Made by a program: the position numbers and the translations under genes | Notes under the pieces: model-generated | What the model was told of the DNA's origin: nothing | The model's database searches: none | The model's input: the letters and a program-made list of their open reading frames with translations, nothing else | DNA from: a virus | Lineage: Duplodnaviria > Heunggongvirae > Uroviricota > Caudoviricetes | Length of the DNA: 64,000 nt | Strand: one strand, 5' to 3' | Virus record (IMG/VR): IMGVR_UViG_2744054962_000001 | Part shown: piece after piece, positions 17,454 through 64,000 of the stretch | How the letters are laid out: every line of letters starts with the position of its first letter | Numbering within the stretch: position 1 is the stretch's first letter

Positions 17454-19562
17454 ATGTCTAAAAAACGTTCCATCAAAGAGGTTCAGGACTTCCGTGACAG
17501 TGTAAAACGAGTAGTCGCTCTCCTTTCAGGTAAAAACATCCCTGTTGCAGAACGAGGGGACGACGCTTATGTACGCTATAACGATGATGGAGAGCCAATT
17601 CTCGTAAACATCCCATCAATCCCGGATAACGCAACACCGGCATTGATGAATGCTGTGCGCGGATTTCTCGATCATGAGGTTGCTCACATTTTGTTTACCG
17701 ATATTCGTGTGTCCAACAAAATGAGAGAAAAAGGACGCGTTCCTTCCTGGTCGCTATGGAATGCCTTAGAAGACGTGTTCATCGAGCGAAAAATGGGTCA
17801 GGTCTTTAACGGAACAAGACGTAATCTGATGGCAACTCAGCGCCTTATAATCGAAAAAGTCTTTAAACCAAAGGCTTCAGAGGCTATTGCTTATTGTGGC
17901 AAAGATCAGCGCGCGCTTTTTCTAAACTTCTTTCTCTGTCCGGTTGTAAGAGCCTGGGATGGCCAAGCACCGTTCGTAGATTTCATGGATGAATATTGGC
18001 CTGTCATTGAGAAACCAATTTCATTATTAAAAGAACATGGTATCGATGTGGCCGTGCGTAACATGTCTTGCACCGAGGATTGTGTAAAGGTGGCTGCGAC
18101 CATAGCTAAGATCCTCAAAGACACTGAAAGTGAAAGCAAAGGTAAGGAGTCAGCTCCGGGAAAAACTTCCGATCCTTCAGACGCTGACCAGACGGATGCC
18201 TCTGGAGAAAACAATGAAGATAACGAAGATCATGAGACACCCTCAGCGTTAGATAATCACAAATCTATCAAATCAGAATCACACAGTAAGCACAAACATG
18301 ATAATAATGACAGTGATGATTTAGATAATTCTGAATCATCAGAAACAATATTCGATGATACAGAAAATGATAAAGAGGTATCAGATTCTGATGCTTCTGA
18401 TAACGCGGCGTCAGAATCATTAACCGCTGACCACGAAAAAAGAAAAACGACAGAAGACGGCTCTTCAGATATTCCAACTCCGTCAAAAATGAGTCTGGAA
18501 GAGGCTTTAGAGGAGCTGGATAGCATAGAAGATGAAGTCGGAGGCATGACAGAAGATGCTCTATCCGAAACGATTAAAAGCGAGTTAACAGAAAGCTCGA
18601 AAAGCGAATACAGGCCATACAATCGCTCATACGACTTCATCGGCTCGATTGATCAGGCAGAAGCCCATATCAAACGGCTTATTAAAACATTCTCCGATAT
18701 TGATTTAGGAGGATGTCCAATCAGCCGCTATCGCATCGTTCCTGAAGGCAACCAGCTCTTCGACAAATATATTGAAAAGCATCTTTCGTCAGGTGTTTCG
18801 TCGACGCTGGCAAAAGACCTGGAGCGAGCAATAGCAAGCAGAAACAGAGTTCAGTTTATACCGGGCCAGCGTCGGGGGCGCATTCATGGTTCTAGTATCT
18901 ACAGATTAGCAATGAATGATGATCGCGTGTTTCGTAAAAAAGAAGAATCTAAAGCCGTTAACGCCTGTGTTCAACAAGTGATTGATTTATCAGGTTCAAT
19001 GAGGGGTATAACGATACAATTGGCTCTTGCAAGTGCATATACCATCGCCGATGCCCTTGATCGAATAAATGTTCCCAACATTATCACCGGCTTCACTACA
19101 TTTGGTAGTCATATGGCGGCAGGAGAACTTAAGGCTGTCAAGTATGAGTTCTCTCGCTTTGAATCTTTAATGCTACCTATCATCAAAAATTGGAATGAAA
19201 AGGTAAATTCTCGCGAAGTTCGCTCACGTATGGGGTGCGTAGGCTACACATTCCCACTTCTTAATAACGTGGATGGTGAAAGCATAGCCAGCCTTGCATC
19301 GTTATTTTCCGGTCGCATGGAGGACAGGAAGATCATGCTTGTTCTGAGCGATGGCGAGCCGTGGGCTGTTGGGAGAGGTTTTGACGCTCATTTGCGTTCG
19401 GTTGCGAAGCAAATTGAAACGCAGACTGACATTGATTTGATGGCAATTGGCATCATGACTGACGCACCGGAGAGATTTTACTCAAATCATGCCCTGGTAA
19501 CGAGCGTTGATAGTCTTGGTTCATCTGTAGTTACTGAACTATCTCGTATCATTTTAAAGTGA
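17454..19562 (+). CDS. CobT-like protein with acidic Ser/Asp-rich linker and C-terminal vWA domain
   Basis: MIDAS-like DLSGSM motif in C-terminal third; long acidic low-complexity middle; upstream of AAA+ CobS-like gene. Confidence 0.55.
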   Translation: MSKKRSIKEVQDFRDSVKRVVALLSGKNIPVAERGDDAYVRYNDDGEPILVNIPSIPDNATPALMNAVRGFLDHEVAHILFTDIRVSNKMREKGRVPSWSLWNALEDVFIERKMGQVFNGTRRNLMATQRLIIEKVFKPKASEAIAYCGKDQRALFLNFFLCPVVRAWDGQAPFVDFMDEYWPVIEKPISLLKEHGIDVAVRNMSCTEDCVKVAATIAKILKDTESESKGKESAPGKTSDPSDADQTDASGENNEDNEDHETPSALDNHKSIKSESHSKHKHDNNDSDDLDNSESSETIFDDTENDKEVSDSDASDNAASESLTADHEKRKTTEDGSSDIPTPSKMSLEEALEELDSIEDEVGGMTEDALSETIKSELTESSKSEYRPYNRSYDFIGSIDQAEAHIKRLIKTFSDIDLGGCPISRYRIVPEGNQLFDKYIEKHLSSGVSSTLAKDLERAIASRNRVQFIPGQRRGRIHGSSIYRLAMNDDRVFRKKEESKAVNACVQQVIDLSGSMRGITIQLALASAYTIADALDRINVPNIITGFTTFGSHMAAGELKAVKYEFSRFESLMLPIIKNWNEKVNSREVRSRMGCVGYTFPLLNNVDGESIASLASLFSGRMEDRKIMLVLSDGEPWAVGRGFDAHLRSVAKQIETQTDIDLMAIGIMTDAPERFYSNHALVTSVDSLGSSVVTELSRIILK

Positions 19563-58315: not shown

Positions 58316-58343
58316 CTATCGACTATCGACTATCGACTATCGG
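58316..58343. repeat. Heptanucleotide tandem repeat (CTATCGA) x 3 plus a variant copy
   Basis: CTATCGACTATCGACTATCGACTATCGG immediately upstream of start codon at 58350. Confidence 0.6.
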
Positions 58344-58349
58344 CAGGAA

Positions 58350-58691
58350 ATGAATGTCATCCACGAAATCGTGGCCGAGTGCGAGAAAGAGATCGCCTTC
58401 ATGTATCAGGTACACGACTTCGTTTATGGCGACGAACGCCACAACATGATTAATCGCCTGCTGAGACTAAACCATCGACCAGATGAAGATCGCTCACGTT
58501 TAAATCGAGGTTGTTTGGATAAAGTCGATCTGGAATGGGTGAAACAGAATATTTGGGCCGAGTACTGGAGGAAGGTCACGGACATGACTAACGTTTTGCT
58601 GATCATGCCAGCTTCCCGTCGAGATGAGTGGCGCGAGCAGTTTATAGAGGGCAAACAGGAAGTCATCAAAACTGACAGAACCGGCTACTAG
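58350..58691 (+). CDS. Hypothetical protein
   Basis: 113-aa ORF downstream of heptamer repeat. Confidence 0.45.
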   Translation: MNVIHEIVAECEKEIAFMYQVHDFVYGDERHNMINRLLRLNHRPDEDRSRLNRGCLDKVDLEWVKQNIWAEYWRKVTDMTNVLLIMPASRRDEWREQFIEGKQEVIKTDRTGY

Positions 58692-58818
58692 ATGAAGGTT
58701 AAAGAGTTCGTTGGTGTACCTGAGTTCAAAGTGGATACAGACATCCCTACGATGGTTTGATCTGACAGCTATCTGCAATTTGCACAGATATCTGCCAGAT
58801 CTGGTTCAGATTAATACA

Positions 58819-61800
58819 CTATATCTGCCCACCTACTCCTTTGAACTTTTCAATAAACGTGACGATTTTCTGGAAAACGGTCTGTTTTTTCGTTTTATAT
58901 TGCGGGTTTAACGGACTAAGTTTTGGTAATGTCTCGTTTAATTCTGTGCCATTTTCGGTGGCGTATTCGCGTTTTAAAGACGTGCGAATATAGCGTTTCG
59001 CCGCCTCTTCATTGAGATTTTCTTCTTTTATCAATGCTTCTGCTTCACGTTGCTGTTCGCGTTGAGCAAACGTAAAGAATGCCTCAATGATACTGGCTTT
59101 GTCTGGTAAATCATCCAGGTTCGTTTGCTGAATAAAATCGACCACCAGGCCCTCTTTCGCCCGGTTCCCCAGGCTTGAACGAATTAAGCGTTTGACCTCT
59201 TCGATCATTTCGCCCTTGCCTTTATTTTGTCTGTTGTGTTCGAAAATCAGTCCAAGGATATAATCCAGGTTTATTTCCTGAGACTTCAGCAAATCGACCT
59301 CAAAAACTACGTCATCCCAGTCAGTGGTTGATTTCTCTTTTTTCTCAGCTTCTTTCTCACGGCGTTGCCAGTCGCGAATATCGTTATAGGCAGAACGATA
59401 ATCCTGAATCTTGCGTTCAGCAGGGAGACGAATCGTTTGCAATTCAGCGAACTTTTCATCATCCACATAATGTTCTTCTTTGAATTTTTCTACCGCAACA
59501 GGATCGCTAAGATCGATTTGTTGCAGGGCTTTCAGCGTGGCAAATTCATCATAGTTTTGCAGGATGTTCTCGGCACGCAGGTATTCACCAAACAGTTTAA
59601 CGAAGTCTTTCTTCTCTTTTTCACTTTCAATACTGGTAGGGTCAGGGAACCGTTGTTCCAATTCTGAAACTACTGCCATAAAGCCGCGCTTAGCTTCACC
59701 AGTGGCAGCATCAGTAAAGCCTTCCATATACTCTGCATAACTCTTTTCTAAAACCACATTTTTGGTGTTTTTGCCACCAAACAGCGTTATGGCATCAATA
59801 GTTGAGCGTTCCAGATCCCGGAAAGTGACGATATTACCGAAGGTTTTAGTTGCATCATAAATACGGTTGGTGCGGGAAAATGCCTGCATCAAGCCGTGAA
59901 AACGCAGGTTTTTATCGACGAATAGCGTGTTCAATGTTGGAGCATCGAAGCCAGTTAAAAACATCCCCACGACAATTAACAGATCGATATCCTGATTTTT
60001 AACCCGCTGGGCTAAATCACGATAGTAGTTCTGAAAACCGTTACTGTCGGTGCTGAAGTTAGTTTTAAAATAGCTGTTATACTCACGAATTGCAGCATCA
60101 AGAAACTCTTTAGCACTGCTGTCCATTGCGCTGGTATCAAAAGTTTCATCGGATATTTCACCAATGGCATTTTGTTCTTCATTAGCGGCAAAGGAGAAGA
60201 TTGTCGCAACACGCAGTGGGTTATAGGTGGCAGATTTATTAGCGGCTTCCTCTTGTAACCGTTTAAACGTCGCGTAATAGGCTTTCGCGGCATCCACGCT
60301 GCTTACTGCCAGCATGGCATTAAAACCTTTGGAACCAGGGAAAGTACGGTGGGTCTTCTGACGGAAATTATTCAGAATATATTGCGTGATTTCCTGAATA
60401 CGCATGGGATGAAGAAACGCCTGCTGATTTTCAGCCGCACTCAGTTTTTTCTCGTCAGTTTCTGTCTCTAAAGACTTAAACTGTGGCCGCACATCGTTGT
60501 AGTCCACCTTGAATTTGAGCACTTTTTCGTCACGAATCGCATCGGTAATTACATACGAATGCAATTCACGACCAAATACGCTGGCGGTTATTTCTGAGCC
60601 TAAGGCATTTTCCGGGAAAATAGGTGTGCCGGTAAAACCAAACTGATAATAGCGTTTGAATTTCTTCTTCAGGTTTTTCTGCGCTTCTCCAAACTGGCTG
60701 CGGTGACATTCATCAAATATAAACACCACTTGCTGATTGTATACAGGCAGGTCGCTTTCTGCTTTCATCAGGTTATTAAGTTTCTGAATAGTGGTGACGA
60801 TAATTTTGTTATCGTCCTTATCCAGATTTCGTTTAAGACCTGCTGTATTTTCCGAGCCGTTAACACTATCTGGCGAAAAACGCTGATATTCCTTCATGGT
60901 CTGGTAATCGAGGTCTTTCCTGTCGACCACGAAGAAGACTTTATCAATAAAGTCCAGTTCTGTTGCCAGACGCGCGGCTTTAAAGCTGGTCAGTGTTTTA
61001 CCAGAACCGGTGGTGTGCCAGATAAAGCCACCGCTTTCGGGGTTAGACCAGTTTTTCGCTTTATAGGAGCTGTTGATTTTCCATAAGATTCGTTCGGTGG
61101 CGGCAATCTGGTACGGTCGCATCACCAGTAGTGTCTGACTACTGTCAAACACGCTGTAGTTCACCAGAACATTCAGCAGAGTATGTTTCTGGAAAAAGGT
61201 AGCGGTAAAATCTTTGAGGTCTTTAATCAGCGTGTTGTCTGATTTCGCCCAGTTCATGGTGAAGTCAAAACTATTTTTATCGCGCTTTGTGGTGTTGGCA
61301 AAGTAACGGGTATCGGTGCCGTTAGAAATGACAAACAGTTGCAGATACTTAAACAGGGAATTTTCGCTGTTAAAACTCTCTTTACTGTAACGATGTATCT
61401 GGTTGAAAGCCTCACGAATCGCCACGCCGCGCTTTTTCAGTTCGATTTGCACCAGAGGCAAGCCATTAACCAGGATAGTTACGTCATAACGGTTAGCGTG
61501 AGAACCTGCCTGTTCAAACTGCTGGATAATCTGCACTTTGTTGCGCATGAGATTCTTTTTATCGATCAAATAGATGTTCTCAAGACGCCCGTCATCAAAA
61601 ATAAAGTCGCAAATATAGTCGATATGGATTTTACGGGTCTTATCCAGAATGCCATCACTCGGGTTGTCCAGATACTGCTCCGTGAAACGCCGCCACTCGC
61701 TGTCATTAAATACCACACCATTGAGGCTCTGAAGCTGTTCCCGAACATTGGACAGCATCGCCAACTGTGATTTTACCGAAATAAATTCATAGCCCTGATT

Positions 61801-61935
61801 CCGCAGGTCCTGAATCAGTTCCCGTTCCAGGTCCGATTCGCTCTGGTAGCTGTCGCCTGTTTGCTCAGCTTTGATGTACTTATCAAGGACGATAAAGTTA
61901 TTGGATTCAGCAATGGTGTGTGTTTGATGAGTCAT
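58819..61935 (-). CDS. hsdR: Type I restriction enzyme R subunit (Type IC, EcoR124I-like)
   Basis: 1038 aa; N-terminus [24 protein letters not shown] matches my recollection of EcoR124I HsdR; helicase motifs TGSGKT and DECHRS. Confidence 0.8.
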
Positions 61936-62056
61936 AGCGCATCCTTTGTGCCGCCTGGCAAGGGCCGGAAGGGCGTTAAGAGTGACTTCCGGCGCGTAAA
62001 AAATAGTCTATATACAGACCGGGTGTTAAGGAGGCCCGGTCGGTAGCAATGGTCAA

Positions 62057-63394
62057 TTATTTACTGACAGTTTCAGGTTTTGGGAAACTGAACAGTAAAT
62101 CACGATAGTACTCGTATTGTTTCTGGCGCAACTCGATTTCACGCGGAAGGCCTTCGGTGATGGAGTTAGTCAGGGTGTCGAATTTATCCAGAATCCGAAC
62201 GATTTCAGACTGGATGGCAAGGGATTTTTCCGGATTGCCCGGGCAGGGGATGGGGATGAGTAGTTTTGACATCAATGCATTTGAGCTTAGATTCGGCTGT
62301 GCTCCGCCCCCTGCAAGGATATAAATAGTCTCTGTATTTAACAATAAAAAATGGTATAAATAATTATTGTTTAGAATATTTTCTTTGGGTATAAATTTTC
62401 CAACCCGTTGATTAAGATAACATTTTATTTCTTTTTTATAAATCCCCACTTTTCCTGTAGTGGCACCTGACATTGCAATCAATATATTTCCCATAGATAC
62501 CTCAAAGGAGGATAAATCTTCCTTGTAATCATTTAGTGAAAAGTATTTCACCTCATCTAAGTTAACATTAAACCCATCTATATTTGTGATTCTAACTATC
62601 GGTAACCCAGTTTCTTTAAATAAGCTGCTTTTAAATGCAAATCCATTTTTAAAATCACAAACATCCTTCAGGGTTTTCCACTCAACCTCAACCCCATCCA
62701 GCAATTTTTCCAGATAAATAGGTTTTTCCTGCTCCTCATCAAAACTCAACAACTGGTCGCGATAGTAGTTGTATTGTTTTTTACGCATGCTAAGCTCTGC
62801 TGTAAGCTCTGCTGTAAGGGCGCTGAATTTGTCCAGAATTCGCACGATTTCAGACTGGATAGTAAGGGATTTTTCTGGATCATTAGGACAAATGATAGGA
62901 ACCAGTATTTTTTTAAATCTTGATTTTGAAATATTAAAGCGTGTTACACCACTAGCTGTTTTTGCTATTTCAGAGCGCATGAAATGGGTTCGAAAAAGGT
63001 ATTTTGCGAACTCCGGTTTGATTTTTATGCTGTTACTGAATCTGATACCAAAAGAAAAGCTGTTTAAATACACTGATTCTTCGAAGTGTACTGTAACGGC
63101 GGAGGACATGCCTGCTTCATCAGCAATTTCAGATGAGCCAGTAAATAAAACATCCCCATATCTTACTTTATTTTGTCTTTCTCCCTCACTAATATATACA
63201 TAATCAGTAGGGTAATCATTCACATCTAAATAACCAAATATTTTTTTGTATGAAACATATCTGGCATTACCGTTCTCAAAATCAGATTTACTCTTTCCTG
63301 TTAGGCCACCATAAATTTCAGCGACGTTCCCCAATGGCAACCACTTAACTTCAACCCCATCCAGCAATTTTTCCAGATAACTTAACTCGCTCAT
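62057..63394 (-). CDS. hsdS: Type I restriction-modification specificity subunit (Type IC) with two TAEL repeats
   Basis: Conserved N-terminal, central and C-terminal blocks ([20 protein letters not shown]...[23 protein letters not shown]) with two AT-rich variable target-recognition domains. Confidence 0.8.
62793..62816 (-). repeat. 12-bp tandem repeat encoding TAEL-TAEL in the hsdS central conserved region
   Basis: AGCTCTGCTGTA x2 on + strand, equivalent to ACAGCAGAGCTT x2 on coding strand. Confidence 0.7.
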
Positions 63395-64000
63395 TTCTGT
63401 ACCTCGCAGCCTTCAATTTCAGCCACAATCGCATCAATATCTTTACGCAACTGGTCGATTTTGCTGACCGTGGTTTTCAGCTCTGCATTCAGTTCAGCAA
63501 TATTGATTATTTCGCGGTTATCTTTCGCTTCCACATAGCTGCTTACCGACAGGTTATAGTCATTCGCGACAACGGTCTCAAACGTGACAGATTTCGCCAG
63601 ATGAGCAACATCTTCCTTGCTGGCAAATACCTGCATAATCTGTTCGATATGGGCATCGGTCAGGATATTGTTGTTAGTCTCTTTTTTGAACAGTTCGCTG
63701 GCGTCAATAAACTGAACTTTGGTATCCGTTTTATGTTTAGACAGCACCAGAATGTTTACGGCAATGGTGGTGCCAAAGAACAGGTTCGGTGCCAGTGAAA
63801 TCACGGTTTCGACATAGTTATTATCGACCAGATACTGACGGATTTTCTGCTCCGCGCCGCCACGGTAAAAAATACCCGGGAAGCAGACAATCGCAGCACG
63901 ACCTTTGGCAGAAAGATAGTTCAGTGCATGTAATACAAACGCAAAGTCAGCTTTGGATTTGGGGGCCAGAACGCCAGCCGGGGCAAAACGCTCATCGTTA
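63391..64000 (-). CDS. hsdM: Type I restriction-modification methyltransferase subunit, C-terminal part (5-prime end beyond window)
   Basis: Frame open to window edge on minus strand; overlaps hsdS start by 4 bp. Confidence 0.7.

Follow-up and report, generated by a model that had tools for sequence, protein, structure and literature searches.

Type I restriction-modification (R-M) systems fall into families that are defined by the sequence similarity and the interchangeability of their subunits. In the Type IC family, EcoR124I, which is encoded by the conjugative plasmid R124, carries two TAEL units in its specificity subunit HsdS and recognizes GAAN6RTCG, and EcoR124II carries three units and recognizes GAAN7RTCG, the switch between the two being made via unequal crossing-over; EcoDXXI and EcoprrI also have three TAEL units (PMC3874165, PMC12707154, PMC7383803). 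Furuta et al. (2011) proposed that in hsdS of Helicobacter pylori and Streptococcus pyogenes the layout x-TRD1-y-x-TRD2-y, in which target-recognition domains (TRDs) lie between x and y repeats, is a substrate of 'domain movement' (DoMo) (PMC3077401). Here we analyzed a 64,000-nt stretch of the virus record IMGVR_UViG_2744054962_000001 (the window), which carries at its right end hsdR, hsdS and the 3′ part of hsdM of a Type IC system. It is highly likely, as far as the sequence can tell, that this locus would encode a functional enzyme of the EcoR124I type whose bipartite target differs, and would serve as a defence and competition module of the phage-plasmid that bears it. This reading draws on gene content and integrity, subunit family, the TAEL repeat, the distribution of the TRDs and the genomic context, which were all read directly from the DNA; enzymatic activity and the interval between methylated adenines are predicted from them.

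Alignments placed the three subunits in the EcoR124I family. HsdR aligned from residue 1 to 1038 with EcoR124I HsdR (PDB 2w00), a protein of equal length, and 987 of the first 1010 residues were identical (97.7%, 23 differences). HsdM, taken as a full-length copy from the plasmid record NZ_CP133922.1, was identical to EcoR124 HsdM (7bst_D) at 514 of 518 residues (99.2%, 4 differences), and the part of HsdM lying in the window at 199 of 202. Pfam searches detected HSDR_N, SWI2_SNF2/ResIII, T1R_D3-like and EcoR124_C domains in HsdR, HsdM_N and N6_Mtase in the full-length HsdM, and two Methylase_S domains in HsdS. The EcoR124_C domain (PF12008), that is, the C-terminal helical domain of EcoR124-type subunits, was found at HsdR residues 728-1031 with E = 1e-71. 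The motifs of HsdR were unbroken, with the nuclease sequence QIELKK at residue 163 (PD-(D/E)xK region), and, in the SF2 motor, the Walker A sequence GSGKT at residue 310 and the DEAD-box sequence DECH at residue 408. The conserved regions of HsdS matched the EcoR124I HsdS chain 7bst_A (E = 3e-65), the shared parts being the N-terminal 26 residues, a near-identical central region and a C-terminal region with an identical stretch of 44 residues. A search of solved structures with HsdS returned EcoR124I together with the distant HsdS chains 1yf2, from an archaeon, and 7vru, from PacII. An AlphaFold model of HsdS reached a pLDDT (predicted local distance difference test) of 85.7, and structure comparison confirmed the HsdS fold, with 34% overall identity to the EcoR124I chain.

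The arrangement of the genes pointed in the same direction. The order hsdM-hsdS-hsdR is that of EcoR124I; hsdM and hsdS overlap by the sequence ATGA and hsdS is separated from hsdR by a gap of 121 bp, which is the layout of Type IC loci. No prrC gene was present between hsdS and hsdR, where there is only the 121-bp gap, and neither a second hsd copy nor an orphan hsdS was found in the 64,000-nt window. The first-pass annotation had read the gene order and the 1038-residue HsdR as those of a Type IC system, and had also described HsdS as keeping the conserved frame regions of EcoR124I; open reading frames, coordinates, subunit identities and the alignment to 7bst_A bear out both claims. On sequence similarity, the system is thus a Type IC (EcoR124I family) R-M set. 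It is already generically annotated in RefSeq, and its machinery is well known.

The two enzymes part at the domains that read the DNA. Both TRDs of the window HsdS are AT-rich (Table 1), the GC content being 44-46% in hsdR and hsdM and 42-48% in the conserved parts of hsdS. TRD1 gave no alignment to 7bst_A and TRD2 showed weak similarity to TRD2 of EcoR124I, by which measure the system is no isoschizomer of EcoR124I (GAAN6RTCG). The comparison covered EcoR124I, as the sole Type IC specificity subunit, and the other solved structures. The earlier suggestion that the variable domains are AT-rich and divergent held, and the difference in recognition sequence that it implied is a sound inference, because TRD1 could not be aligned and TRD2 aligned weakly. 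We then compared HsdS segment by segment with its 120 closest homologues. Many E. coli HsdS proteins carry at position 1 a TRD that is 99-100% identical to TRD1, and TRD2 was 98-99% identical to residues 22-159, also position 1, of P0007, P0068, P0073, P0094, P0102 and others; a TRD2-type domain occupied position 2 in a few alleles (P0012, P0016). Judged by sequence identity, these TRDs are not unique to the window, each being 98-100% identical to TRDs of other uncharacterised E. coli HsdS. Among 5,426 complete E. coli genomes, TRD1 DNA was found in 22, TRD2 DNA in 14 and both together in one.

That both TRDs recur in other HsdS proteins of E. coli, with 98-100% identity, raises the alternative that the enzyme is an isoschizomer of one with known specificity, be it EcoDXXI, EcoprrI or a REBASE entry assigned from SMRT (single-molecule, real-time) methylome data, in which case the target would not be new. 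Some of the strains that share a TRD have been long-read sequenced and may have motifs in REBASE, so that the half-sites could be known even though the pair is not. On the other hand, the TRDs differ from those of EcoR124I, the only Type IC specificity subunit directly compared, and the pair occurred in a single one of the 5,426 complete genomes. The literature on Type IC systems, methylomes and TRDs (reviews and methylomes of other species) yielded no motif for TRD1 or TRD2, nor did we find a published methylome for strains sharing either domain. We consider this alternative somewhat unlikely. The target sequence of this HsdS is probably new, since two rare recognition domains are combined in it.

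The hsdS gene also contains direct repeats. A 40-nt direct repeat, x, is present at 62678-62717 and 63341-63380 with 95% identity, and a 99-nt direct repeat, y, at 62169-62267 and 62814-62912 with 76% identity, plus 46 nt at 74%. These repeats flank both TRD1 and TRD2, giving the gene an x-TRD1-y-x-TRD2-y (DoMo) layout. The second x lies in the linker that precedes TRD2, where 18 residues replace the 4-residue KEGE of EcoR124I. Such a long linker was present in about 25 of the 120 homologues, the 4-residue EcoR124I-type linker being found in most. In the AlphaFold model the linker forms a separate short helix (residues 226-232) that mirrors the N-terminal helix (residues 3-11). We also considered whether the long linker extends the coiled coil and hence the spacer; this was rejected, since in the model the linker stands apart from the coiled coil, as a duplicate of the N-terminal helix.

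When the TRDs of the 62 parsable homologues were clustered, 24 clusters were obtained, of which four were found at both positions. The TRD2 family occupied position 1 in 34 parsed homologues and position 2 in five, and the corresponding counts for the TRD1 family were 19 and six. At the DNA level, TRD2 of the window was 98.6% identical to the position-1 TRD of strain JX21CE8 (P0068). In allele P0002 the order is reversed, a TRD2-like domain (81% identical) preceding a TRD1-like domain (73%). From these sequence comparisons, hsdS is a recombinant of modules drawn from a family pool, and the evidence for TRD reassortment and position swapping is clear. TRD2, normally found at position 1, is flanked like TRD1 by x and y repeats, which would be substrates for TRD exchange and for swapping of positions. 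The hsdS genes of H. pylori and S. pyogenes share with the window allele the arrangement x-TRD1-y-(12-bp central repeats)-x-TRD2-y and the occurrence of a TRD family at both positions (PMC3077401), but they belong to another bacterial group and R-M family, and in the EcoR124 family a full second x is present in long-linker alleles only. A limited literature search returned no paper describing domain movement in the EcoR124 family. We put forward, tentatively, a broader view. The enterobacterial hsdS genes of the EcoR124 family may exist in two forms, one with a short and one with a long linker, and the long-linker form, being symmetrical (x-TRD-y-x-TRD-y), may let TRDs swap positions. On this view, the window allele and P0002 would be a natural pair of 'circularly swapped' enzymes, perhaps with the same duplex sequence as their target, and, together with the common natural alleles of one, two and three TAEL units, phage-plasmid-borne Type IC systems might act as a combinatorial specificity generator that is undescribed for this classic family.

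In the TAEL repeat of the window allele, the 12-bp unit AGCTCTGCTGTA is present twice in tandem at 62793-62816, as the first-pass annotation had stated, and Tandem Repeats Finder confirmed it, widening the perfect tract by a few nucleotides (period 12, 100% matches). The repeat is not a chance feature, since its position is homologous to that of the TAEL repeat of EcoR124I HsdS (7bst_A) and two units were found in 100 of the 120 homologues; 14 carried one unit and six none. That this is the site where unequal crossover alters spacer length, which had also been claimed, agrees with the literature (PMC3874165, PMC7383803). Natural alleles illustrate the change in copy number. P0073, with two units, and P0094, with one, were encoded on 49 and 47 contigs respectively and were otherwise identical at 421 of 422 positions, and an allele with three units, in a locus laid out in the same way, lies on the chromosome of strain 550 of E. 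coli. A degenerate pattern for TAEL x3 matched at least 120 species-representative genomes of many phyla, each time within this HsdS context. Among the matches listed (loci L003-L122), the arrays lie in HsdS central regions of phyla as different as Bacillota, Bacteroidota, Pseudomonadota, Cyanobacteria and Spirochaetes. In 89 of the 118 three-unit arrays among those matches the 12-mers did not differ in DNA sequence, which suggests that the TAEL repeat is maintained as a uniform sequence and not just conserved at the protein level.

DNA-perfect repeat units, here and in those 89 of 118 arrays, might indicate that the repeat works as a programmed, high-frequency phase-variation switch of the phasevarion type, and not as a site of occasional evolutionary variants. 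Alleles that differ in TAEL copy number alone (P0073 and P0094) are both common, and Atack et al. raised the idea of phase variation for repeats adjoining TAEL (PMC7383803). However, a 12-bp unit present in two copies makes a poor substrate for slippage, a switch of specificity with an active hsdR would leave the host chromosome unmodified and open to restriction, and the finding of exactly two units in 100 of the 120 closest homologues suggests stability. All in all, a programmed switch seems very improbable, and we favour the view that the 12-bp unit would be gained or lost occasionally, by unequal crossing-over or slippage, with a shift of the spacer by 1 bp.

With regard to spacer length, the AlphaFold model showed a central helix of 44 residues (173-216), which holds the repeat, and a C-terminal helix of 47 residues (388-434). 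Self-alignment of HsdS showed that the central helix is shorter than the C-terminal one by one four-residue unit, as in EcoR124I. A review has remarked that three TAEL units look optimal, and the helix lengths of the model agree with this. Because two TAEL units leave the central helix one unit shorter, as in EcoR124I, we predict that the interval between the methylated adenines would be 7 nt, which corresponds to an N6 spacer for a pair of half-sites of 3 and 4 nt. EcoR124II, EcoDXXI and EcoprrI belong to the same family and also have a spacer set by the repeat, but they carry three units and an N7 spacer, whereas the window allele carries two.

By EcoR124I precedent, HsdS would associate with two HsdM subunits to form an M2S methyltransferase in which the two TRDs would each recognize one half-site of an asymmetric, bipartite target, with N6-methylation of a single adenine on each strand. 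The distance between the TRDs would be set by the antiparallel coiled coil of the central and C-terminal helices. Addition of HsdR would give an R2M2S complex able to translocate unmodified DNA in an ATP-driven manner and to cut it at a distance.

Several points weigh against a working enzyme of this kind. In the first place, hsdM is cut at the window edge, and its completeness rests on near-identical records, namely NZ_CP133922.1 (pEco_M21170_105) and LNUH01000021.1, in which the gene is full-length (518 codons). Secondly, a single-nucleotide difference from NZ_CP133922.1 at 62863 produces the substitution A178T at the start of the central helix of HsdS, at a position that is Ala in 97 and Thr in one of the 98 homologues with a parsable central region. 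Thirdly, the sigma-70-like match before hsdR scored 9/12, which is the chance level for the region. Finally, the adenine interval assumes EcoR124I-like docking of the TRDs, and TRD-dependent shifts of the spacer are possible. The rarity of A178T at a conserved position, together with the degradation of the adjoining backbone gene by truncation, frameshift and a stop codon, which indicates that the region tolerates decay, could mean that the locus is silent or partly active: modification-only, inactivated by A178T or by non-expression, and retained as hitch-hiking cargo. Against this, the three open reading frames are full length, the catalytic motifs are intact and identity to an enzyme of proven activity is 98-99%. 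In addition, eight contigs, each of about 110 kb (e.g. LNUH01000021.1 and LNUG01000021.1), code for precisely this HsdS, so that A178T is a real variant and not an error, and has been maintained; its effect is probably neutral. We regard a silent or partly active locus as improbable, and retain the reading of a working Type IC enzyme with its own target. The coordinates of the locus and of the parts of hsdS are given in Table 1.

Table 1. Features of the hsd locus in the 64,000-nt window
Feature	Position	Strand	Description
Left cassette junction	58755..58818		Cyrano homology stops inside a truncated DUF4942 gene
hsdR	58819-61935	-	1038-aa restriction/translocase subunit; open reading frame, EcoR124I match and Pfam
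hsdS-hsdR intergenic	61936-62056	-	121 bp, 55% GC, two stem-loops; weak sigma-70-like site at 62029..62000
hsdS	62057-63394	-	445-aa specificity subunit, layout x-TRD1-y-(TAEL)2-x-TRD2-y; open reading frame, Pfam and model
C-terminal conserved region	62057..62254	-	aa 381-445; second coiled-coil helix, second 'y' repeat
TRD2	62255..62668	-	aa 243-380, 31% GC; TRD family mostly at position 1 elsewhere
Long linker	62669..62737	-	aa 220-242; internal copy of the N-terminal conserved segment, second 'x' repeat
Central conserved region	62738..62899	-	aa 166-219; first coiled-coil spacer helix
12-bp tandem repeat	62791..62818		perfect, 2.3 copies; encodes TAELTAEL, HsdS aa 193-200; spacer-length determinant
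TRD1	62900..63319	-	aa 26-165, 34% GC; no relation to EcoR124I TRD1, which recognises GAA
hsdM 3′ third	63391-64000	-	aa 317-518 of 518; remainder past the window end

To place the system in its genomic context, we compared the window with phage and plasmid records. Over positions 34000-58754, identity was 98.4% with Escherichia phage Cyrano and 79% with Salmonella phage SSU5. The near-identical plasmid record NZ_CP133922.1 is of type IncFIB, non-mobilizable and 105 kb long. The carrier is an SSU5/Cyrano-like phage-plasmid of E. coli, and the R-M system is accessory cargo on it, whereas EcoR124I is carried by a conjugative plasmid. An R-M cassette of 6.85 kb (12059-18910 of locus L001) stands in place of 5.86 kb of Cyrano sequence, which takes in ead/ea22/eaa-like genes and the greater part of the DUF4942 gene and reaches as far as the gene of an S24 LexA-like peptidase; the right junction lies past the window end. 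On the left, matches in other genomic contexts begin at about 58815-58819, at the hsdR stop codon. Cyrano, the closest relative of the backbone, has no R-M cassette at this locus, and the cassette site marks a variable cargo spot in SSU5-like phage-plasmids. Identity of the window with NZ_CP133922.1 itself was considered and rejected, given three differences between them (A178T at 62863, a stop codon at 58689 and a 7-bp repeat).

The hsd family as a whole is widespread. About one quarter of the 5,426 complete E. coli genomes contained it (1,444 with any match, 479 with a match to at least 80% of 5.3 kb), and the module was located on chromosomes in 1,029 cases and on plasmids in 768, as well as on P1-like phage-plasmids and on a Klebsiella SSU5-like phage. 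The P1-like phage-plasmids vB_EcoM-673R5 and phi456 and the Klebsiella SSU5-like vB_KpnS_p4727 carry hsdR and hsdM with 82-95% DNA identity to those of the window, but differ from it in the TRDs of hsdS and in insertion context.

With the system described here, the best-studied Type IC family gains a further specificity, probably an uncharacterised one, and is placed on SSU5-like phage-plasmids, a finding of modest importance. Its expected role, as judged from its genes, would be to methylate the DNA of the phage-plasmid itself, to restrict rival phages and plasmids and so to shape gene flow in clinical E. coli. Its contribution lies in its setting on a phage-plasmid and in the evidence that TRDs of the EcoR124 family are reassorted and swapped between positions. 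As an example from nature, the allele shows cleanly how HsdS evolves by modules, with TRD reassortment, position swapping and a change in coiled-coil repeat number coming together. Prediction and engineering of Type I specificity could follow once the half-sites of the TRDs are known.

The spacer between hsdS and hsdR has a predicted fold of -37.7 kcal/mol (z = -2.57). It contains two hairpins, GACCGGG/CCCGGTC and GCCGGAAG/CTTCCGGC, both stable, which are possibly a terminator, a repetitive extragenic palindromic (REP)-like element or a regulatory site. The spacer is a candidate hsdMS terminator and a candidate promoter of hsdR's own, both of them features that have been described in Type IC systems.

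On the other side of hsdR, the adjoining open reading frame of 113 residues had no Pfam match, and comparison with Cyrano identified it as the remnant of the DUF4942 gene. At 58689 this remnant carries a C-to-T change with respect to both NZ_CP133922.1 and Cyrano, which converts CAG into the stop codon TAG and is a further decay of a dead gene, since the remnant had already been truncated by the R-M cassette. The backbone at about 34000-58750 (and L001 1-12000) encodes functions of nucleotide metabolism (nrdA/B, thymidylate synthase and dihydrofolate reductase) as well as TciA/TerB-like genes and a phage N6-adenine methyltransferase, and metG and apbC/minD-like genes lie just past the window end. 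Finally, a tandem repeat of the heptanucleotide CTATCGA was observed at 58316-58342, inside the truncated DUF4942 gene and some 50 nt from its 5′ end, with four copies in the window, five in NZ_CP133922.1 and two in Cyrano. The tract looks slippage-prone, and possibly phase-variable in the intact gene of relatives, because its copy number varies and the reading frame is kept by two and five copies and shifted by four.

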